From positions 1 through 15,793 of the forward strand of contig JBHGNT010000778.1 in assembly GCA_043228905.1 (NCBI GenBank): a stretch of DNA of 15,793 bases. Reading direction: 5' to 3'. Source of the DNA: Azolla caroliniana (taxonomy: Eukaryota; Plantae; Polypodiophyta). Position 1 is the first letter of the stretch. Each line of letters begins with the position of its first letter. Positions 2,180 to 15,793 of the stretch are shown piece after piece. The notes under the pieces are model-generated. The model had not been told where the DNA came from, did not search any database, and saw only the letters and a list, made by a program, of their open reading frames with translations. Made by a program: the position numbers and the translations under genes.

Positions 2180-3400
2180 TTACTCTTTTTCAACCTCGAT
2201 GGTCGAGGCTACATCGTTTAGAGCTTTGATTTCAAGATTTGGGGCCTCTCTTCTCTTAAAGATCTTGATTCTGTTTCTTGCAATTGGCAAAGCAAGTGGT
2301 GTACCATCCAGTTCTACTAAACGATATGTTGCATTATTTTCCACTTTCTTCAGCACATGGTCCAAACCATCGTTGTGAAAATTTTCGAGCCGTACTATGT
2401 TGGTTGTCTAGGCTACTGTCGTAGACCAGCACCCAATCTCCTTCAACGATTTTCCTCGAACAAAGTCAATGTCGTTTGTCGAAGTCTTTCTTGTTTTTCA
2501 GCCTTGCATTCTTTTGCCACGCTTTAGCCACTTCTATATCTTCCAACTTCCGCTCCAACTAGTGAATCTTCAATGCTAGAAGATCTTCTCTACTTATCTC
2601 ATCTTGCCATGGCAATGCAAACCATGAAACTGTAATACTCTGTTCCACTGGCATTATCGGCTTCTGACCGAATATAAGATCTTCCAGCATGTATCCCATC
2701 ACCGTGCGATGAGTAGTCCTGTCAGCCCATAGTGCAAATGGCAATAGACATGGCCATTCTCCTATTTTCCCATGGCAAGCTCTCACTAGAGCCTTCACAA
2801 TCAGTCCATGTCCACATTCCACTTTCCCATTCGCTTCCAGATTATACGCCGTGGTAAGAGATAATTTGATTCCCATCCCTAGACAAGAATTCTCTAGCTT
2901 CATTGGCATCCAACTCGCCTCTATCAACCACTATCTTGCTGACGCATCCACATCTGCAAATAACATCTCCAAGAAGGAATCTGCATACTGATGATGTCTT
3001 CTTAATTCTCAATGCTAGCCCTTCAACTTGATTGGTAAGATCCTCTCTCGCGAGCACAAGATACTTCATTTGCCATCGCCCCATTGGCATCATTACGATG
3101 TCCACCATCCACTTGTCATGCATAGCCAACGGGTAAGTCAGATGAAGTTCATCTCGATGGCGAACATTTGAAAACATCTAGCATTCCTTACATGTTTCCA
3201 CATAAGTTGCTACATCTTTGTAGATGCACGACCACCAATATTTCTCCTTAAGCTTCGCGAATGTAGCCCATATTCCTCGATGGCCTACAAAAACATTGTC
3301 ATGAAATTCAGACATTAGTTTTTGTCGGTCTTCCAGCTTGCAAACAACTCTCATTGGGGTCCCATTCTTCTGTTTTGCATGCCTCCAAAGAGCTCCATCC
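2180..3400 (-). pseudogene. pol: Gypsy integrase (HHCC zinc finger, DDE core, GPY/F-type tail), disrupted
   Basis: H..GHRGIWATFAKLKEKYWW..CKEC, KWMVDIV, VVDRGE, YNLEANGKVE and NATYRLVELDG are spread over ORFs 3178-4038, 2842-3177, 2559-2927 and 2180-2365, with stops and frameshifts. Confidence 0.92.
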
Positions 3401-5175
3401 TTAAGGAAATACTTGTACCCCTTCTTCCGAATTTGGTGGAAGTCTTCTGTAAACCATGATTCATCTTTTTGGAGAGAACTCAAGTATTTCCCGATCTCCA
3501 CGAATTCTCCTTCGTAGTCCTCTTCTATGAAAGTAGTCAGCACCCGAGGATAGGAACTTGTAAAGAAATCCAAGCCAACATCCTCTTCATTAGAATGTCG
3601 ATCTTCTTCTCCGTCGTATCTTTCTCGTGCTAGTATGTCTGCAATGACGTTACGCTTCCCAGCTACATGAAGGATCTCTAGGTTGAGTGATTTGATATAT
3701 GCAATCCAACGTAGTATGGCAATATCTAGTGTACTACAACTACATATCATACCCAAGATTGGTAGGCAATCTGTCTCGATTATGACTTCTCCTCCAATAA
3801 GGTAGTCACGATCAGACTTGATTGCCGATACAATTCCCCATAGCTTCCTCTTCACTTGGGCATACCTTCTTTGCCTATCACTTAACACTTTTGCGCAAAA
3901 CTGAATTGCATATCGGTTGCAATCTTCGTCTTCTTGGTTGACAACCCATCCAATTCCAGTCGGACTAGTATCCACGGTCACGAAAATGGGCTTGCCGTTT
4001 GAATAGTCTGCCTTCCATAATGCAGGTGCCTCCATCAATAATTTCTTCAGCCTTCAGACGGAGAAAGTATGCTCGCTCATCCATTCGAACCTCTACTTCT
4101 TCTTTAGTAGACCATACAATGGCTCAACAATGTGGGCGTAGTGTGGAATCCAAATATGATAAAACACACATGCTCCAAGGAACCTTTGAGCCTCCGTTTG
4201 GGTTACTCATTCTTCTTTCATGTCTTGGATCGCATTCACCTTGGATGGTGAAGCCTTCTGACTGTATGCTCCACACAAGTGACCAACCACCAAGATCTCT
4301 AGTTTCCCGAATGAGATTTTTTCTTCCGAAAATGTCAAATTCGCATCTTTGAGCATTTGAAGCACCTTCTCGCAATCTTTCATATGATCCATGACGAACT
4401 TTCTGCATCCATCCTTATCTTTCGATTCATCCTTCTCCTCATCCAAACATCCTTTTCTCGGATTGTCATCCAAGAATGGCATCGTGATGCTTGGGATGCA
4501 ATCCTTCAAGACCTTGTTCATGGCATTCACCATATGAGCCACCAAGTTCATTGCACCTTGAGGTAAGGTACACATCCGCACAAGCCCGATCGGAGTCCTC
4601 ATGGTTGTAATGTCACGACTGCTGATCGCCAACTGGAATTGATCATATCCAGAGTAGAGATCAGCAATGGAGTAGATGGACCGGCACGCAAACGCCTTGG
4701 CAAATTCATCCACACTCAGACCGATTCCATCATTCCAAATTCTTTCAAGCATTCTGCAGAACATTCGCTCCTCTTCAAGGGGGAGGAAATCCTCCCTTCC
4801 AACTTGTACCTTTCCTTTCATCTCTTCAATGAAGACGTGACCTATTGTCTTTGGATTCCTTAAGCTTGGATCTCTTGCAACTTCCTTCATCTTTTGCCAG
4901 CTATCTTCCGGTAGCGGAATTGCAATTGGCTTCATCTTCCTATCCACCATTTTATATTTTGTGGTGACTTTAGCTTCCTCCATCAAGATGCCTCGATGAT
5001 ATTCATCAATGATAGTATACATGTTGACAGAGTTAACAGAAATCACATGTTGATTGTGAGGATAGCTCAAGTCCATGACTTCCTCTATTTCGCCGATGGT
5101 GTTGTTAAATGAGGCTTCCTCCAGAATATGAGATAGGAATTCTTCTTCTTCGATTATGCTTTCTTCGTCTAGCAC
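3401..5175 (-). pseudogene. pol: Gypsy reverse transcriptase and RNase H, disrupted
   Basis: RT motifs ADLYSGYDQ, LPQGAMN, PFLDD (FLDD at 4465-4476), VVGH and RFLG. RNase H motifs VTVDTSPTGIG, RYAQVKRKLWGI, IETDC and GKRNVIADIL. In-frame stops lie between 4039 and 4209. Confidence 0.95.
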
Positions 5176-5399
5176 CTTCTTGGAGTCTTGTATCCAATGC
5201 TTGTCCTTCTGGTTGAGTAGTGTTAGTTTACATGTGCCCTAGGTGTGACGCATGTTGCTTCTCCTTGCAATCCACGGTCTTTGCTTCCTTGTGGAGATTT
5301 TTGATTGCTCAGACTATTTGTGGGCCATGCGTCAATAGTTCGCTTTAAAAATCTGAGGATTCACCTCCAAGGCTATCTCAGTTCCTTTCGTGATTAGCT

Positions 5400-6075
5400 C
5401 GCACCATCAGGAGTTGAACAGATCTTTCACTATCAAGACTCTTGACTCACGCAAAGGCTACTCCATTATCGAACACCTTGGTCTCCATCCGGGACAATGT
5501 TATATACGGTTGTCCTAGGATGACAGGATGCAAAGCCGAGTCTTGCACAAAGAAGTGTTGATCAATCTCCACATCCCTGATCGTGACCTTAACATTGGGG
5601 CAAGCTACGTACAAGTCCATGTGGCCTTCGTTGCCACTGAAATCCTCCATCCGTGGTTTGTATTAATCGGCCATCTTCCTTTCTTGTAAAACTCGGTCGA
5701 CATGAGGTTGATCTCCAAGCCATGGTCAATCAAGGCCACCACGGTCTCTTTCTTCTTCTCGATCTTCACCGGCATCTCCGTTGTCGCTCTTGGCCAATGA
5801 GGTTGAGAGTAATGGCTATCTCCCACCACTTCTTCTTCCTCCTCCTCTTTCGATCTTGTCATGGTTATGGCACTTGTTTTCATCTCCCCTTCATCATATT
5901 GTTGCCGCTTCCACTTAATAAGGTCCACGATAGTATCATGGAACTCCTTCTTCGCGATCCCAAGTAGTTCTCTCAAAGTAAGGTCGACATGACTATCTAA
6001 AGCCTTCTTCTCAAGGACCTTCTGCAAGTTAGTTGTTTGTTCTATGTCCAACCTTAACTTGTAAGTCTGTGCCAC
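5400..6075 (-). pseudogene. pol: Gypsy aspartic protease region, frameshifted
   Basis: VVALIDHGLEINLMS (D-H-G at 5719-5727) and downstream PVILGQPY (ILG motif) lie in adjacent frames. Confidence 0.88.
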
Positions 6076-7426
6076 TTATTCTTCTTCTTTCTTCGCTGAT
6101 TCATCAACTTCCATCTGAGCAGGTTGGCTCAATCCATTGGGCTTCATGCTTGTTTCTCCAACCTCTCTTCGTGGCGTCCATTGGGCTTGCCCTTCTTCTT
6201 ATTGGAACCTCGTACCTCGTATTGGAACGCTTTGATGTGCCATCTTCTTCTCCAGTTCTTTTCCTCTATTCTTCGACAAGAGCTTCATAGTTATCGCACA
6301 CAACCTCCGCAAAGCTAGTGTTATCATCGATTAGATCAGACCATCTCATAACTTGTCGCATGTTCCGATTAGCAAGTTTTAGATCCTCCAAATCGATTTT
6401 CCTTTTTTCTCGCACTTGAAGACCGTCAGCCAAAACCCAACTCCTAGCTTGATCATTTTAAGATTCTCTCTTCCAAGTCATATCCCGGCCGATGCAGCAT
6501 AGTGATGGCTTCCACATGCCTTGTGTCTTCCTCTTCCACAATCTTTTCATCCCGCCTCTTCCGAAGATCACTCGTAGTGGCTTCCGGGTCTCGCTCGAGT
6601 GGATCATGTTGCCCTTGGGCCCGCGTCGACCTAAGTTGGCTAGTGATACAGCTTCAAACTTCTTGGAGAGCTCTTCGATTATAGATTCCTCCATCGCTTT
6701 CTTGTCAAAATTGTTGATCAGCTTGCTCGGCTCGATCATTGTAGGCATTGTCCTCCACGATTGTGGATTCTCCACATCAGTCTCCTCTAACCATTGTCGA
6801 TGCTTATCAAGACGGCTACAAGCCTTCTTCACCGCCGCCCAATCCGCTACCAAGCCATTTGGTTGCGTTTCAACCTCCAAAAGGCTGCCCAATTCTCGCC
6901 GTTCTTTCATATCCACCACCTTCAAGAACAGCAAGACTTTATCTCTTTCGAGAACTCGTTGATCCGCACTCAGAAGTCAGTTGTACTTTTCGTCAAATTC
7001 CGCATATACTCCTGCCGCACACATATTCTTCCCTTTCTTCTCGATCCAAATCATTAGTGTATGTCGAGTCATCCTTGATGCATCTTCAAGCATGTATTCA
7101 GCAAGAACCACATTTTCGAACTCCGCCCAAGTTGTGTGCTCATTTTAGATCTCCATTATGCGCTCACAGATCCCTGGTTCCACCACACGTTTAAAGCTAG
7201 AAATTTGTTTTAGATCATTGACATCCCTCTGCTACATCTCGTTTAGATAGGTAGCAAGGAAATCTGTGATATTCTTGCCACCAAACCATCCAACTATCTC
7301 CACCGTTCAATCAACATCTTTGTCGATTAAAGCCTCCCGATCTCTCACCTTCAGCATGTATTCCACGACGAACACCATGCCTTTCGTTAATTCCTCTCCT
7401 TGAGTTCTGCTTGTCGAAGCCATCAT
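6076..7426 (-). pseudogene. gag: Gypsy gag, disrupted
   Basis: The ATG at 7426, just after the PBS, is in frame with ORF 6458-6934 and reads MMASTSR...GWFGGKNITDFLATY...TTWAEFE... with several in-frame stops. Position is between the PBS and the protease. Confidence 0.8.
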
Positions 7427-7454
7427 CGCACTTGATATCCTCCTACCGCCTTGT

Positions 7455-7472
7455 TTCACGTTGGGTTCACCA
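7455..7472 (-). other. Primer-binding site complementary to the tRNA-Trp 3' end
   Basis: The plus strand reads TTCACGTTGGGTTCACCA versus the plant cytosolic tRNA-Trp end TTCACGTCGGGTTCACCA (17/18, tRNA sequence recalled). A 4-nt spacer separates it from the LTR end at 7477. Confidence 0.85.
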
Positions 7473-7476
7473 AAGA

Positions 7477-7744
7477 TGTTGCGAAAATACGACGAGTGTC
7501 ATGAACTTGAGGTAGGACCCTGGGTCCTCCGACCAAAGGATATGAGATTCATGCGTTTATACTTTTAACAATTAACGAAAATGAGAAATATTGTAATTTT
7601 CTTTTCCTTTGCTAATGAAAAATTACAATATTTTCTCATTTCCATTAATTGTTAAAAGTATAAACGCATGAATCTCATATCCTTTGGTCGGAAGCCCTGG
7701 TGTCCTACCTCAAGTTCACGTATCCTCGTCGTATTTTCACCACA
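7477..7744. repeat. 268-bp imperfect palindrome made of two oppositely oriented LTR U5 ends (remnant 5' LTR)
   Basis: 7477-7600 is the reverse complement of ~7619-7744 (roughly 88% by eye, with a perfect core of ~48 bp). It begins TG and ends CA, and both arms are homologous to 567-~690. Confidence 0.93.
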
Positions 7745-7859
7745 ATGCTCTAACTCACTACGTTCCACACGCTATGCAATTTCCTACCCTGTACCACGAT
7801 CACCTTGATACGTACCCCGAAGGACTGAGGGTAGGCCATGTTCCTAACCGGCAACACTT

Positions 7860-8507: not shown

Positions 8508-11500
8508 GTAAGCCTTACTTTTGGGTGTGACCATAATGAGTCTCCAAGTGTATCCACTATATGATACGTGTGTATGGATGTCCTCATTCATGTGTGTGTA
8601 TTGGGAAAACTCTAGATGATATTTCACATGGACTTTATATCCATAGTGTCCATATGTTTGATTTTCTTCTTTCTTACTAACATTAGAGTAAGGTATTATA
8701 TCGGGCCGCATTCACTAAGTATTAGAGTGCATAATGCATAATCACTAACTATAGCTATCAAATGTTGTATACACCATGTTCGTAACCTGTAATTTAATTA
8801 CATTTTATGTCTAGAGGTCATGATTTTCTCAATATTTCAACCAACTTTGCATATTACATAATATAGCATTTCAATTGAATAAGCAATTGTCATATTCTTA
8901 ATTTTAAATAAATTTTGTATTCAGAGATCATCAACTTTATAAATATTCAAAGAATACATGTTTTTTACTTTAAAACTTGTTAACTATTAATAATTTAGCA
9001 AATTCTATATGGGTTGACGAACATGTGATACTAATGTAACAAGTTTCTATATATTGCATAAATTTGCAAAATTATAAAAAGAATCTAAAAATGGAATGCA
9101 CTATCCTTCCACTTCTGAACGCGAACGTGTTTATTATAGGATCATGTTATGACATTGAGAGCATGTCAAAACCTTTATGAACTCTTTCAATGGGTCTCTC
9201 TATTTGAGGGAGGTATGACTCCACAAAGTCATCTAACTCTTTTAAACAAAACCATAACTCCTAGAGAAATCCCATCAAGGCTCTTGTCAAGATTACAATC
9301 AATTCTTAGAGTCACGCGTGATCGTGTGGAAGTTGATGATGTATTTGTAAACCCACCAGTTGTAGGTTTCAGCCCATGCTAGAAGTCAAGCTGGTTACGA
9401 CCTTTGGTACACCTCTAGTATGTCCTTACAAAATAAAGCAAGATAATCAAGAAACTATGGACTAAAATATGGCTAATGTTTCTTGACATACAAACCTTTC
9501 AAGACCCTCCATCTTGTCAAGTCAGTCTAGTTGGATCTTTCAATCAAACCTTATTGCATTATTTGCAACATGATAACAATGTAGGAAGTGCCCTTGACGG
9601 TGCCTATACGTGTTCTTGGTTTTGGTGATGGTTCTGGTGCTGGTGGTTGTACTTGAGTTGTCCTCCTAGTGTGTGTTTGCAATGGCATCAGAGAAGCACT
9701 TACGGAGGTCATCATACTCAAGCGTTTGTAAGAGAGCCAAGTGTGATGTTATATCCTCATCTGTATACCCCGATACCATCGTGCAACTATATGGAGAATA
9801 TAAGTGCTGGGATGGTTGATGGTAATTTCTCCAACATAAGTTCCATAATACCTAAAACACGTACATAAACAATTTTAGTATGTATGTGTGTGCATGAATG
9901 ATTGATTGTAGGAATGAATGTGTGCATCAATTTATGTATGCTATATGTGTGTGACTGAATGTGTATGTATGAATGAGAATCTTGTGTATAAATGTTAGTT
10001 TGAATATATTTATGCTAGTTTATAATTGAATTGTTAAACGTAAGCTATCTATGTGTACGAGTGTATAAATGTACGTGCATGAATGTGTTAATGAATAAAT
10101 TATTATATGGATGTTTGTATATGATTGTGGTAATGCGTACATATATATGAAATCATAAATAGCCTGAATAATGTGCATGTGTCCATTACCATACACACTT
10201 ACATTACAATGTAACAATGAAGTCCCAAGTACCTTTGAGATATTGGATATATTTTTCTCATGAATTAGAATGCTTGATAATAATATAAAAGGAAAGAAGG
10301 TGGTCAATACAATGGTCCATGCATTGGGACATGAAGATTATAACAAGGGTGTAAGTGTGGTGTAGAACAACTTCGCATCATTTGATCGTGAAGTGCCCAA
10401 TGATAAGGCTAAAGATAAGAACATGTGTGAAAACGAGATCCCTTGGAATAGTTTGGACAATGCCGTGACATAAATCTCCAAGGCTTCAAGCCTAGCCTAC
10501 ACTACATTGGAAAATATGAGAGGACCATTGGCATTGTGCAACAATATGCACCTTAGAAGCTTTGAGTTGGAGCACTACTATACCCGATAATGGAAATAAG
10601 AAGGTTGAAGGTTGTCTAGATGATGGCATGAATGTCCTCTCCAAAACTTCATCCCCAAGCTTCACTATACTTTGTAACTTTATGAAGCAATGAAGTTATA
10701 TGGGAACAAAGAATATGTAAAGGCCAAATTTGAGAAGTCATTTGCCATATAGAAACATTTAATACATGCATAAAATCATAAACATACATACAATTGTACT
10801 TTGTACATATATACACATACAATCATTAATTTATACAAATGCATACATTCATTCATTTACACATGCATATAACAATCACACACGCACATTTTTTACAATC
10901 ATTTGCATACAATCATAGAAATATAAATGCATTAATTTATATACATATAAACATTCGCATAAGCTCTTCATCATTGCGACTTGCCATTTTATTTCCATTT
11001 GACATTCCTCACCATCTAGTTCTATATGTAGCTCAAATTTTAATGGTAACTACTAACGGAGGAGTAATAGGAACACTTCAAGAAAAGGAAATGAAGAACT
11101 ATAAATAAAAGGGGTTGTACTCCCCTAAACTATATTACGGATAATGTTGCTTTCCATTACTTTATGAATGATAGATTAAGTAGAGTAGGCCTTTGACATT
11201 TATCTCATTATATTGCAAATTACATTTTGCTTGATTTATACTTCATTTTCCATATATATTAAGTAGAGTAATGCAAATATGGTCAAAACGATAGATGATG
11301 AAAAAAAAAACCATAAAAAATGTGGAAAAAAAACCTAATCCAAATTATGTTATTTAGATTTCGTAGATTAGACAAATAAAATTGCATATTGTATGTTATG
11401 TTGTTATTGAAGTTATGGAAAAAGGATGGATCATGGGAGACGATACAATACCCCCCCAAAAAGAACAAAAAAATACGAAGAATATGCTGGGTAGGAATCT

Positions 11501-11823
11501 CCTCAAGGTCAACACAGATACAGAGGGTAGTGCGCACAGATGATGTTCAAAAGAATTCCTCTCTACATAATTTCCTGAAAAAGAGGTTTGAATATAATGA
11601 GTCTGTGCAGATTAAATTTTTCAATGAGTTGAATGGCGATTGAGCAATGCATGATCTGTGGGTCTCCCCTTTAGATGACCTTACGAACGAGGAGAGCTCA
11701 ATCAGAATCTCCTGGTTCTAGCAGCGACACATCAATCCATCCTTACAGCGAAGGATTGACCAAAATGCATGATTCTCTGCAGATGATGCTCTCTGAGCAA
11801 TAGACCATGACTTGCTCATTCTG

Positions 11824-11826
11824 TAT

Positions 11827-11868
<42 letters not shown>

Positions 11869-11922
11869 TACATATACATGATATATATTATGTATATGTG
11901 TATGTATACATACATTATTACA
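11824..11922. repeat. (TATACA)n microsatellite and flanking TA-rich low-complexity tract
   Basis: Six perfect TATACA units from 11828, then degenerate units. Confidence 0.92.
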
Positions 11923-11952
11923 TATATAAACCCCTCTCTCTCTCTCTCTCTC
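11923..11952 (+). promoter_or_regulatory. Candidate TATA box plus (CT)n pyrimidine patch of the GLR gene
   Basis: TATATAAA at 11923-11930, then (CT)9 from 11934, ~70-100 bp upstream of the ATG at 12022. This is a typical plant core promoter/5' UTR layout. Confidence 0.6.
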
Positions 11953-12021
11953 CCTCGTCCCTTCCACCCCCTCAGTTCACACTTGGCCACCCGTTGGGGC
12001 CGTCATTCTCATCCCCCGACC

Positions 12022-12348
12022 ATGTATGCTCCGATGGGCCTCATCACGGCTCTCCTAGTGCTTGCCATCTTCTTCTCCCCTGAATTTCCGACTGCGCACG
12101 CGACCAATTCCTCCAACTTGAAGATCCTTGTTCCTCTCAAACTTGGATTCGAGGAGTTTGTGAGTTGGCAATCGTCTGAGATACCGGTCACGCCCAACTC
12201 CGTCGTCAATTTCTCCGGCTTCGCCATCAATGTGTTTCAAGAATGCGTTGAGAAGCTTAATTATCGTATTAATTACACATTAATTGGCTATGGAGATGGC
12301 CTTGTAGACCCAACCTATAATGACCTTGTGCAAAAGCTTGTCTCTAAG
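12022..12348 (+). CDS. GLR: Glutamate receptor-like channel, exon 1 (signal peptide plus first part of S1 ligand-binding segment)
   Basis: MYAPMGLITALLVLAIFF..AHA signal-like peptide, then LKILVPLKLGFEEFV..FSGFAINVF..L.Y..Y..YGDG..PTYNDLVQKL, matching the plant GLR S1 pattern (LRIGVP..F.EFV..GFCIDVF..P.Y..LV). Phase-0 donor AAG|GT at 12349. Confidence 0.9.
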
Positions 12349-13389
12349 GTATTACATTAGCTATACGTAATTTTTTTTTGTTTTTGTTGTAGTAATGACA
12401 CTTAATTTTCATAAAAATCAATCGCTTAAGGTTAATCATTTATGATAAATGGACCTCGATAATGTGTTTATATCTATGTTAGCAAGAATTTGTACGTGCA
12501 CATTAATGATAGAAAAGACATAAGGGATTGTGGCAATCCTCAAGTAGGATGTCATGGCTAGACAGGGAGAAACTAATATCTAAGTCCATAAAATACCTCG
12601 AGACTATATGTAACAAATTACTAAGATTGTCCTAATATCATACCCCTTACCATGGAATCTCGTTCAAAGATTGACATAGGCACTAACAAATTGTTGATAA
12701 TTCCATCTATAATTGAGGGTTTGATCCAGTGGACAAGAGTTTGAACTCCAATACATATGAGTGTTTTAAAAGTAATTTTTAGCATCGCTAAAATTATTTT
12801 GACATTCCATGATATACTATTCAAGCATCGGTTGGCCAAGGTAATGTTTTCTAGTTATTCTTGTAAGATCTATTTGATTAATTGTGCAAGATCTATATTT
12901 CTTAGCGCCAAGTAAGTCAAATATGAGAGGCTTATTCGGTGAATAATTGGTTTTGTTGTATTGTATGGAAAAGCTACTCTCAAGAGAGTACGATGTGCTC
13001 ACTTCGAAGAGATAAAGTAACTTTGTTAGTAATCCTTGTGTAGAATGGTCCAAGGAATAGTTTGAGCAAATTTAATACCAAAGATTGAAATTTTTACTCA
13101 AAGAAATACATGTGCAATCAAGTACAAGTGTATGGAGTAAGAGCCAAAAATGTATGCAGTAGAATCGCTTCGTATGGAGAGGGAGTTGTCCGATTTTGAC
13201 ATACGGAAGCCGATTTGATGAAGATATTGCGTTATCTTTGAATGCCAAGCACACGGTGCTTTGAATTTCCACTGCTTGATAATGATATTTACATAGCATA
13301 CAACAAGTTGGATTAATAAGGTTTTAATTAATTCTGTGCTCCAGTAATACGTTCGTATTGGTTTTCACTATATGCATGCATGGTCATAG

Positions 13390-13673
13390 GACGTAGATGG
13401 AGTAGTTGCTGATTTGACGATCACTAGTGACCGGTTACAGTTAGTAGACTTTACCCAGCCATATATAGGATCAAGTCTTCAAATGATCGCGCCACTTCAA
13501 TCTAGGAGTAATATTTCATTCTGGACATTCATTTCCCCTTTCTCTTGGCAACTTTGGATAACCATTGGAGCATTATTTATTGTCACAATGTCTTTGATCT
13601 TCTTCGTGGAATGGTGTGGCCGAGCTGATGAACACGATGGAGGTTGGGGAAAGGCCTTCTCAAAATCGTTTTG
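13390..13673 (+). CDS. GLR: Glutamate receptor-like channel, exon 2 (rest of S1, pre-M1, M1, up to start of M2)
   Basis: Acceptor CATAG| at 13389, then DVDGVVADLTITSDRLQLVDFTQPY..FWTFISPFSWQLW..IFFVE..SFW, and phase-2 donor TG|GTAAG. Both intron positions match those I recall for plant GLRs. Remaining exons were not found in the window. Confidence 0.93.
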
Positions 13674-14624
13674 GTAAGAACTCATGATCACCTCATATCA
13701 TATTGTTTGTATCAAACTAGATTTTTCAACACCTCATATTAGTGTGTAATTTAAACACACACAACATATGAATGCGAATATTTAATTGTATATATTGATA
13801 ATAAATATGTTAAATTCGAGTCATAATATGGCATTGATGGCAATTGACAAGGTGCGGAACAACTTTCAATAGCAGGTACTATGACATTGACAAGGGATAC
13901 AAGACTCTCTTAGGTGGAGGGTTTGTCGAGGTAGTGTTTATAGCAAAAAGAAGACAACCCAAACTTGAAGATAGATGTCTAGGGTTTACGGTTTAGGAAC
14001 ATGGAATTGGACGAGGTCCGGGCTGGGAGTACATGTGTAATATCGCGCTTTATATCAAAATGAAGTTAACCCAAACCCAAAGATAGACGTCTAGGTTTCT
14101 CAAGTAACCCTCACCTAATAGGGTTTAGGGTTTCATAGTAACTGCTACCCAATTGCTCTAGATTGTTTTCCAGGAGCTATTTAGACAACAATCTTACGAT
14201 TGATTGCTAGCCATAGTTGGTTGGGAGATTAGTTACAAGCATAAACTGAAAGACATGAAGGGGATAGATATCATGAGGAATGTAGGAAGACAATGTGTTG
14301 TTGAAGAAGAGAAAAATCTAGAGACGTGAACCATGGGTAGAGTTCATCATAACAATAAATATATTAGGAAAATAAATATATCAAGTAGCTAAAATTACAA
14401 GTTAGTTACCTTCGACGGAGAGTTACTTGGGTGTTGAAGGACTATAGACTATGCCCTCACTAGTGTGCATTATATAATTGAGTACCTAACTAACATACTA
14501 CGCCTTGCCTCATCTCATCTTTGAAGATCCTTGTCCCATTAGGAGCATCTACCCTTCAACAAAGCTTTTGCTTGAGTAAATGACAATAGAATAGTATGCT
14601 TGCCCAAATCTTCAACTACAAACG

Positions 14625-15147
14625 TGTTGGTCTTCGATTACTGAGATTCGTGAGGAAATCCGATTATGAAATGCACAATAATGCGGGAACAAAAAAATAG
14701 GAAATGCACAGAGTACACAGTTTTACGTGGAAGTCCTAAACAGGGAAAACCACGGGAATAGAGATCCAGTATACAATGGAGAATACAAAGGAGACAATAT
14801 AAAACACTCTCTCTGCACAGAGTCTTGGCGTCACTCTCACTCTCACTCTTCACTCTGTTCCTACTACTCTTACTTCTATTATTATACTAATAATAATAGA
14901 AAATAATCAACCGATTGACTGAATAGTCAATTCAACTAGTCGACTCTAGTGTCGACTGTCCAGTTCGCCCGACTAATCGGCCTTGTCGTTGACAGTCCGG
15001 TCGGCTCGACTAGTCGGTCTAGTTTTCGACTTGGATCCTCTGTTGTCGACTCTCCTTGACATCGACTGTTGTCTCCCAGCCCGACCAGTCAGCTACTCCT
15101 TGTCTTCGACTATCGGCTCCTCCCATAGGAGGGACATATCCCTAACA
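14625..15147 (-). repeat. 3' LTR of the Copia element (523 bp)
   Basis: The minus strand starts TGTTAG after the PPT and ends CCAACA. It contains the Copia U5-type motif CCCGTGGTTTTCC..TTCCACGTAAA and multiple GTCGAC/TCGACT motifs in U3. Confidence 0.85.
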
Positions 15148-15163
15148 AACTCCCCCTTCACTC
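15148..15163 (-). other. Polypurine tract of the Copia element
   Basis: The minus strand reads GAGTGAAGGGGGAGTT immediately before TGTTAG. Confidence 0.88.
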
Positions 15164-15164
15164 C

Positions 15165-15793
15165 TATGGGTGGAGTTAGTTAGCCCTGTCCTTTGTCGAC
15201 TTACTTTGAGTTTGTCCATCGATAGGTTCTTCGTGAGCATGTCGGATCCATTTTAGTCAGTATGGATCTTCACAAGAGTAAACTCTCCATCTTCCACTCT
15301 CTCCTGTAACCAGTGATACCTTCTCTATATGTGCTTGGTTCAGGAGTGGTACATAGCGTTCTTGGCTAGATGTATGGGGTTGTGGCTATCACAGTGAAGC
15401 AAGGACTCCCTTTGCTTCATTCCTAACTCACTGAGAAAATTTCTCATCCAGATCAGCTCTTTTCCGGCCTCTACCGCTGCCATATACTCTGCCTCTATGG
15501 TCAACAAGGCCACATATTTTTTGAAGTTGTGACTGCCATGACATTACTCCCCATGCATAAGTCATCATGTACCCTGAAGTGGATGAACTTGAGTTTGTGT
15601 CCCCCAATGTTTCCAAGTCGGTAAACCCTTCAACCATACCTTAGGCATACCCCAAAGGTGCCTTTCAAGTACTTGAGTATTTATTTAATAGTTGCCCAAT
15701 GTTCTCTTCCTAGATTACTCCTATATCGGCTTATTGTCCCCATAGCAAATGCTATGTATGGTCTCGTACAATCCATAGCATACATTAAACTGC
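15165..15793 (-). pseudogene. pol: Copia RT C-terminus and RNase H, disrupted (Tnt1-like motifs)
   Basis: SLMYAMDCTRPYIAFA, HWATIK*ILKYLKGT, GFTD..STSGY..SWQS, VALSTIEAEYMA, LHCDS, TKHI and SDMLTK, with stops and frameshifts. Confidence 0.93.

Follow-up and report, generated by a model that had tools for sequence, protein, structure and literature searches.

A glutamate receptor-like gene with a leader joined directly to S1 and its place in a clade of ATD-less receptors shared with ferns

Canonical plant GLUTAMATE RECEPTOR-LIKE (GLR) proteins, those of clades 1-4 and GLR0, are marked by a LIVBP-like amino-terminal domain (ATD; PF01094) of approximately 400 amino acids (aa) that separates the signal peptide from S1 and according to the accessible text of PMC11479355 makes up about 45% of a canonical GLR. 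In the accessible portions of PMC11479355 and PMC3483616, the ATD is given as a part of plant and eukaryotic receptors, and only the cyanobacterial GluR0 is named as lacking it. GluR0 comprises a leader followed by S1-M1-pore-M3-S2, has no M4, and is K selective. The insect tuning ionotropic receptors (IRs) are derived from iGluRs, have lost the ATD, and have expanded and diverged beside a few ATD-bearing paralogs; most of them need the co-receptor IR8a or IR25a, although IR76b was reported to work without ATD co-receptors (PMC5615767, accessible part). As regards plants, the accessible text of PMC4995503 counts 11.03% of annotated GLRs as devoid of an ATD, 74% of these in GLR1&2, and interprets the absence as loss of the domain, with no check of transcripts or leaders given in it; the word 'ferns' never occurs in that text. 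We found no description of a conserved ATD-less fern GLR class in the accessible texts searched, including PMC10975470, PMC12226733, and PMC10281673; subscription papers and supplements lay outside the search, and supplements such as Table S10 of PMC4995503 or those of fern genome papers may list such genes. The class described below is apparently new to the literature.

The locus studied here occupies positions 11923 to 13673 on the forward strand of a 15,793-nucleotide (nt) stretch of DNA (the window) and constitutes the 5′ half of a spliced GLR gene in which a leader is joined straight to S1 of the ligand-binding domain (LBD). Exon A (12022-12348; 109 codons, phase 0, stop-free) opens with the ATG and a 27-residue leader (12022-12102), predicted to be a signal peptide from its hydrophobicity, its position, and its terminal A-x-A motif (A-H-A); residues 7 to 17 form its hydrophobic core, with a mean Kyte-Doolittle (KD) value of 3.1. 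A five-residue linker, TNSSN (residues 28 to 32; 12103-12117), replaces the ~400-aa ATD together with the WPG..GW linker, and the first part of S1 starts with LKILVP at residue 33 (12118) and takes up the rest of the exon (12118-12348). The original prediction, made from the sequence, had placed a signal peptide ending in AHA some five residues before LKILVP, and this layout was borne out, with the peptide itself still a prediction. Intron 1 (12349-13389; GT..AG, 1041 nt, phase 0), whose position is common to three of the relatives introduced below (L004, L007, and L009), is followed by the stop-free exon B (13390-13673; 94 codons plus 2 nt), which encodes the remainder of S1 with D-x-T-x4-R at 13411-13434, the S1-M1 linker, M1 (about 13549-13611), and the start of the M1-M2 loop. 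Right after exon B, a strong donor (GTAAG at 13674) opens intron 2, which extends to the end of the window (13674-15793), the next exon lying beyond it; neither an M2 exon nor M3-S2-M4 exons were found in the window, which ends at 15793.

Exon A matched S1 of AtGLR3.3, AtGLR3.4, and AtGLR3.2 from residues 23 to 32 onward (4/4 PDB matches, E values of 2e-6 to 5e-5), and exon B matched residues 565 to 635 of AtGLR3.4, that is, the end of S1 with D-x-T-x4-R plus M1 (E value of 6e-12). The gene thus bears the mark of the GLR/iGluR superfamily, an LBD of the periplasmic-binding-protein type II whose S1 leads into M1. The window sequence ADLTITSDR aligns to GDITIVTNR of GLR3.4, with Asp, Thr, and Arg all present, in agreement with the earlier claim that the amino-acid-binding residues of S1 are retained. 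The Pfam pattern foreseen for the gene was found in part, since ANF_receptor had no match in it, yet Lig_chan-Glu_bd, SBP_bac_3, and Lig_chan matched exon B only weakly, all below the cut-off. A search with exon A against proteins of 192 to 2000 aa passed none of 422 candidates, which is weak evidence. Upstream of the ATG, the TATA-like word TATATAAA (11923-11930) and a (CT)n tract (about 11934-11951) make up a possible core promoter (11923-11951) that is partly kept in paralogs. This block was rightly described as present; its promoter reading is weak, however, as the TATA-like word sits in an AT-rich microsatellite and, although exact in L001 and L002 and shifted in L003, is not kept in L004 and L005.

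Transcript evidence was drawn from one public run of one study (run X1), which we took as RNA-like from its spliced, exon-only cover. Its contigs were aligned to positions 10500-15793 in 30 bins; the five covered bins correspond to the two exons and the leader, and the other 25, which are intronic, intergenic, or retroelement bins, were empty, as expected of RNA. Contigs of a second run, X2, gave no alignment, which counts neither way. Record 2 (428 nt) agrees with the window at every position and connects 12348 with 13390 across GT..AG, skipping 1041 nt, at the canonical splice sites that had been predicted; it then continues in frame for 12 nt into a further exon outside the window. Such a 12-nt loose end reading into another exon was seen in two contigs and has no match anywhere in the window, and the first M2 residues that it supplies for the window gene differ from the fern consensus. 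Record 1 spans 11966-12248 in one piece and runs unspliced through the leader, the ATG, and S1, so that the 5′ leader (11966-12021) is colinear with the coding exon; on its way it crosses three AG dinucleotides usable as acceptors, including a pyrimidine-tract CAG at 11974-5. Record 1 is 98.6% identical to the window, and its 4 differences in 283 positions are all non-synonymous, so it may represent an allele or a close paralog. The RNA-like cover begins near 11957-11966, a position at which contigs cannot show the start of a transcript. Two further expressed paralogs are represented by records 3 and 4. No splicing of upstream ATD exons into exon A was seen in the RNA-like contigs, and the contigs splice onward past exon B.

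Genomic relatives were collected in a metagenome scan, in which 9 loci (L001 to L009) were retained out of 389 candidate stretches. L001 is the same gene in a near-identical allele; L002 to L009, at 49-84%, represent paralogs or relatives. A Met and a leader with a hydrophobic core (KD values of 2.6-3.4) stand directly before S1 in 9/9 loci, and an in-frame stop precedes the Met by 30, 57, 58, 40, 31, 45, 2, 2, and 2 codons in L001 to L009, respectively; ahead of the ATG, the reading frame stays open over 75 codons in the window, as against only 30 in L001. A protein search with exon A kept five of seven candidates, four of which were non-self clusters at 76-79% identity, and in all four the Met and its hydrophobic leader occupy the same position, with the upstream frame not conserved. 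The S1 segment of exon A yielded dN/dS values of 0.15, 0.08, 0.21, 0.23, and 0.26 against L002 to L006, which answers the check proposed with the original prediction: S1 is under purifying selection. For the leader, the values against L002 to L005 were 0.66-1.2; it is under no residue-level purifying selection relative to close paralogs, and only its frame and hydrophobicity are kept.

The ATD was searched for in six frames with a profile built from 16 ATDs, with an S1 profile as the control. No ATD was found in the window, which holds 12 kb upstream of the gene, or in the loci, which hold 0.2-4.6 kb (most of them under 1 kb) upstream (best E value of 2.3), and the S1 control found every exon in the window and the loci. 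The upstream open reading frames (ORFs) at 10830-11105, 11380-11640, and 11797-12357 had no relevant Pfam match. Likewise, the ATD profile had no match in 14/14 fern-clade proteins (best E value of 1.7), and ANF_receptor was absent from the 12 fern-clade proteins scanned and from P0029, whereas in 5/5 truncated seed-plant or unnamed control models, taken from outside the clade, the profile found ATD remnants (E values of 5e-7 to 2e-53). Since such remnants persist in five short angiosperm models, P0168, P0176, P0166, P0183, and P0089, we did not accept these as naturally ATD-less. The claim that the gene lacks the entire ATD, the mark of canonical plant GLRs, is therefore supported both by the 12 kb upstream and by the leader-to-S1 start in 9/9 loci.

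When exon B was searched against 1.84 billion protein representatives, and the Pteridium protein P0026 against a large protein set (99 matches), full-length short GLRs were found in Pteridium aquilinum, Adiantum nelumboides, Adiantum capillus-veneris, and Ceratopteris richardii as well as in unnamed Logan contigs. These short fern GLRs carry Lig_chan, SBP_bac_3, and Lig_chan-Glu_bd and no ANF_receptor. Among the public entries with a leader directly before S1 are P. aquilinum EP00250 P019767 and P008237, C. richardii KP509_23G025300, A. nelumboides L7F22_002707, L7F22_020363, L7F22_040230, and L7F22_062626, and A. capillus-veneris GOP47_0012736 and GOP47_0012738; all are unnamed, with an annotation that goes no further than 'hypothetical' or a domain, and we found no paper on them. 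Two Pteridium members are transcript-derived, their ORFs opening at nt 607 and 331, and the full-length transcript-derived fern relatives share the start architecture of the window gene. A clear hydrophobic leader is present in 11 of the 14 fern-clade tree rows; the models of P0029 and P0138 start without one, and P0161 has a weak one. The features by which we delimited the fern-type ATD-less clade, a leader within about 80 residues of S1 and no ATD, were found in the window gene and in 9/9 loci.

Trees were built from 161 columns of S1-M1; they have long branches and are unrooted, and none of the named GLRs in them comes from a moss, liverwort, hornwort, or lycophyte. In a tree of 64 rows, hand-picked from 266 proteins, the window gene, L004, L007, and L009 shared one branch (support of 100/99) with the fern proteins that are ATD-less or short, 14 out of 14, and the grouping was repeated with 30 rows, likewise hand-picked. 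This placement makes a fern or other seedless vascular plant the likely host of the gene. The ATD-bearing fern GLRs P0025 and P0179, which come from the same fern genomes, fell outside it. In the largest tree, comprising all 154 of 270 proteins with enough S1-M1 to be placed, the clade held 24 rows, and 0 of the 106 ATD-tagged rows fell inside. Over S1-M1, the window gene is 35-44% identical to the fern ATD-less proteins, and its subfamily, in which the M1-M2 loop is shorter, branches by itself. The original prediction had asked for ATD-less orthologues and a GLR phylogeny; the search recovered a conserved clade with full-length members, and the phylogeny placed the window gene on a supported branch free of ATD-bearing proteins. 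That the gene belongs to an ATD-less GLR clade shared with ferns is well supported, and a single ancient loss of the ATD is the likely origin of the clade. As a separate observation, P0048, P0160 to P0163, and P0063 form a subgroup of the clade whose cytosolic loop between M1 and M2 carries a long, proline-rich insertion. In the Atlas, P0163 lies close (0.98) to a Streptophyta cluster of 65 'glutamate receptor' members, 452 aa in length and lacking PF01094, which we mention as a lead only.

Similarly built proteins occur in Fabales, where Bauhinia L6164_002622 and L6164_002645 and Quillaja KAJ7979516.1 have the same leader directly before S1 and no ATD match. P0230 and P0231 (Bauhinia), P0096 (Quillaja), and P0097 form one branch (100/99) among GLR2-like angiosperm proteins, and a single clade of all ATD-less proteins was rejected marginally (p-AU of 0.041). 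Judged by these gene models, the Fabales appear to have lost the ATD separately from ferns. The six rows labeled rosid_noATD occupy three places in the drawn 64-row tree, the count of '1 change' ignoring ungrouped rows, and the short models P0022 and P0015 (Hevea) and P0213 (Aegilops) were neither accepted nor rejected as ATD-less.

Compared with the clade 3 receptors AtGLR3.2, AtGLR3.3, and AtGLR3.4 (PDB 7LZH, 6R85, and 6VE8), the window gene shares S1, M1, and Asp-Thr-Arg, and the full-length fern clade members share S2, M2-M4, the SYTAxL gate, and the LBD fold. The window gene differs in having no ATD, and so no glutathione site, and in belonging to a separate clade with a variable M1-M2 loop. 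Nor does it bear the marks of clade 3 itself: it stands on a separate branch, and a Lys is aligned to the Arg of VPLRV in GLR3.3, which we take to be the clade 3 side-chain arginine. Among 18 aligned proteins, 10 of them from the fern clade, D119, R126, SYTAxL, and F304 are invariant and E347 is nearly so, and the S2 Tyr is mostly kept in clade members. The full-length fern members retain the LBD, M1-M4, the SYTASL gate, and the ligand residues, which are the features named for ligand binding and gating in the accessible part of PMC11479355, and the M1-M2 loop and M2 are strongly divergent within the clade. A structural model of P0026 (pLDDT of 75, pTM of 0.59, 18-row alignment), confident in the LBD and the transmembrane helices, best matches AtGLR3.4, and its LBD aligns to that of GLR3.3 with a TM score of 0.93.

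These features suggest that the gene likely encodes a stripped-down amino-acid-sensing ion-channel subunit. Once the leader is cleaved, the S1/S2 clamshell would lie outside the cell, where an amino acid held by the Asp-Thr-Arg of S1 and a Phe-Glu-Tyr ring of S2 would close it, and the closed clamshell would pull on the SYTASL gate formed by M3 in a tetrameric cation channel. Lacking the ATD, such a channel would have neither ATD-layer assembly nor glutathione modulation. Because the same fern genomes hold canonical ATD-bearing GLRs, the most plausible role for the many short, fast-evolving subunits would be to confer specificity, assembling together or with an ATD-bearing partner, in the manner of insect tuning IRs. 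For the window copy itself, we infer an intact 3′ half and channel function. Of the minimal ligand-gated channel class that was originally proposed, a conserved multi-gene ATD-less fern clade has been substantiated, with gating by a ligand as its inferred part; the sharing with ferns, the expansion, and the second, apparently separate loss in Fabales go beyond that proposal. Overall, we consider it probable that this is an ATD-less GLR gene with a leader-S1 join, that its clade is shared with ferns and goes back to one old loss, and that its products are subunits of an amino-acid-modulated cation channel. The parallel with insects is a hypothesis by analogy: the IRs, like the fern clade, would represent an expanded ATD-less set beside few ATD-bearing paralogs, but they are of independent origin and keep an N-terminal region of about 150 aa, in contrast to the five residues of the window gene. 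More tentatively, and with somewhat more doubt than confidence, ferns and their kin may possess an old, expanded class of minimal GLRs (signal peptide, LBD, and transmembrane domain) that work like IRs with ATD-bearing co-receptors, the Fabales representing a second loss.

A different function, which partly overlaps with this preferred reading, would be that the ATD-less proteins are non-conducting or dominant-negative regulators of canonical GLRs. The accessible texts state that ATDs drive iGluR assembly (PMC3483616) and that a co-receptor is required by many of the insect IRs without an ATD (PMC5615767), and the variable M1-M2 loop and M2 of the clade, along with the departure of the first M2 residues of the window gene from the fern consensus, would fit such a role. 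Nevertheless, the gate motif, M4, and the ligand ring are kept in full-length members, IR76b is reported to work without ATD co-receptors (PMC5615767, accessible part), and GluR0 is a channel without an ATD, and we regard this reading as unlikely.

Less likely still is that the family is real and the window copy, though transcribed, has become a pseudogene or been truncated, perhaps as a result of the retroelement in intron 2. The downstream exons of the copy are not in the window, retroelement debris surrounds the gene, and exon B is less constrained than S1, with a dN/dS value of 0.42 against L004, 5 non-synonymous changes to 1 synonymous against L001, and 17 non-synonymous among 24 changed codons against an RNA paralog. 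Moreover, the paralog L005 is broken (positions 218-1275 of that locus): its exon A is followed by an M3 exon, exon B and the M2 exon are missing, and the M3 exon has a stop after SYIASL. The gap in L005 may be a deletion or a misassembly. Against a decayed window copy, both exons are intact in the window and in L001, the exact-match contig splices in frame into a third exon, and S1 is constrained. In addition, X1 contigs cover an M3 exon of the family (<90% identity to L005) that reads sense at the position of the L005 stop, so that M3 exons with an open frame are expressed in the family, none of them tied to the window copy. We retain a functional subunit as the preferred reading of the window gene, within a family that turns over by birth and death and has at least one broken paralog. 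Two details of its copies may be recorded here. Where exon B ends, L001 (6200-6256) departs from the window (13615-13671) in 5 residues, several of which it shares with an expressed paralog, possibly through gene conversion or a chimeric assembly; and in intron 2 of L004, 83 nt (2561-2643) repeat part of exon A in inverted orientation (77%).

The repeats around the gene were examined as well. On the minus strand of intron 2, positions 14625-15793 hold a decayed LTR element, with the LTR at about 14625-15147 as judged by eye, and the element is also present in L001, up to the end of that locus. The Copia insertion originally reported here is thus upheld as a decayed LTR retroelement, but its Copia type, which we assume from Copia-like RT and RNase H motifs, had no significant Pfam match. 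A decayed Gypsy-order retroelement (DUF4100, RT, RNase H, zinc finger, and integrase) lies at 2500-7500 on the minus strand, flanked by 187-nt inverted repeats (543-729 and 7582-7768, 82%) and with a long hairpin (7502-7588/7632-7718, 92%) beside it; such inverted repeats and a hairpin are unusual for an LTR element. An exact 491-nt tandem duplication with internal 121-nt repeats at 804-1785 may be a recent duplication or an assembly artefact, and a tRNA search of the window found none.

The long branch of the clade and the unrooted trees would also accommodate a primarily ATD-less origin, from a GluR0-like or transferred lineage and with no secondary loss from a plant GLR. This is very improbable, however, given that plant GLR3 proteins are the closest in both sequence and fold and that the full-length fern members have M4 and showed no TxGYG filter of K channels, unlike the K-selective GluR0. 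Least credible of all is a canonical GLR whose upstream ATD exons splice into exon A and whose leader is chance intron sequence: the pyrimidine tract with CAG at 11974-5, the 75-codon open frame, a contig start that cannot prove a transcript start, and the short upstream stretches of most loci leave it some room, but the contig is unspliced across that AG, the AG is absent in L002 to L005, a stop stands 2 codons before the ATG in L007 to L009, 12 kb upstream contain no ATD, and full-length transcript-derived fern relatives have the same start.

The preferred reading, an ATD-less GLR clade of channel subunits shared with ferns, bears on the role of the ATD in the assembly, gating, and glutathione sensing of plant GLRs. 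A conserved, expressed, multi-gene clade of this kind shows that plants can dispense with the ATD and suggests convergence with insect IRs, and it also means that short GLR models should not all be thrown out as annotation fragments. The ATD-less fern GLRs would offer half-size natural channels for structural work and electrophysiology, and the clade can be studied in Ceratopteris. Should the IR-like class prove true, these natural ATD-free GLRs would be ready tools for asking what the ATD does in plants.
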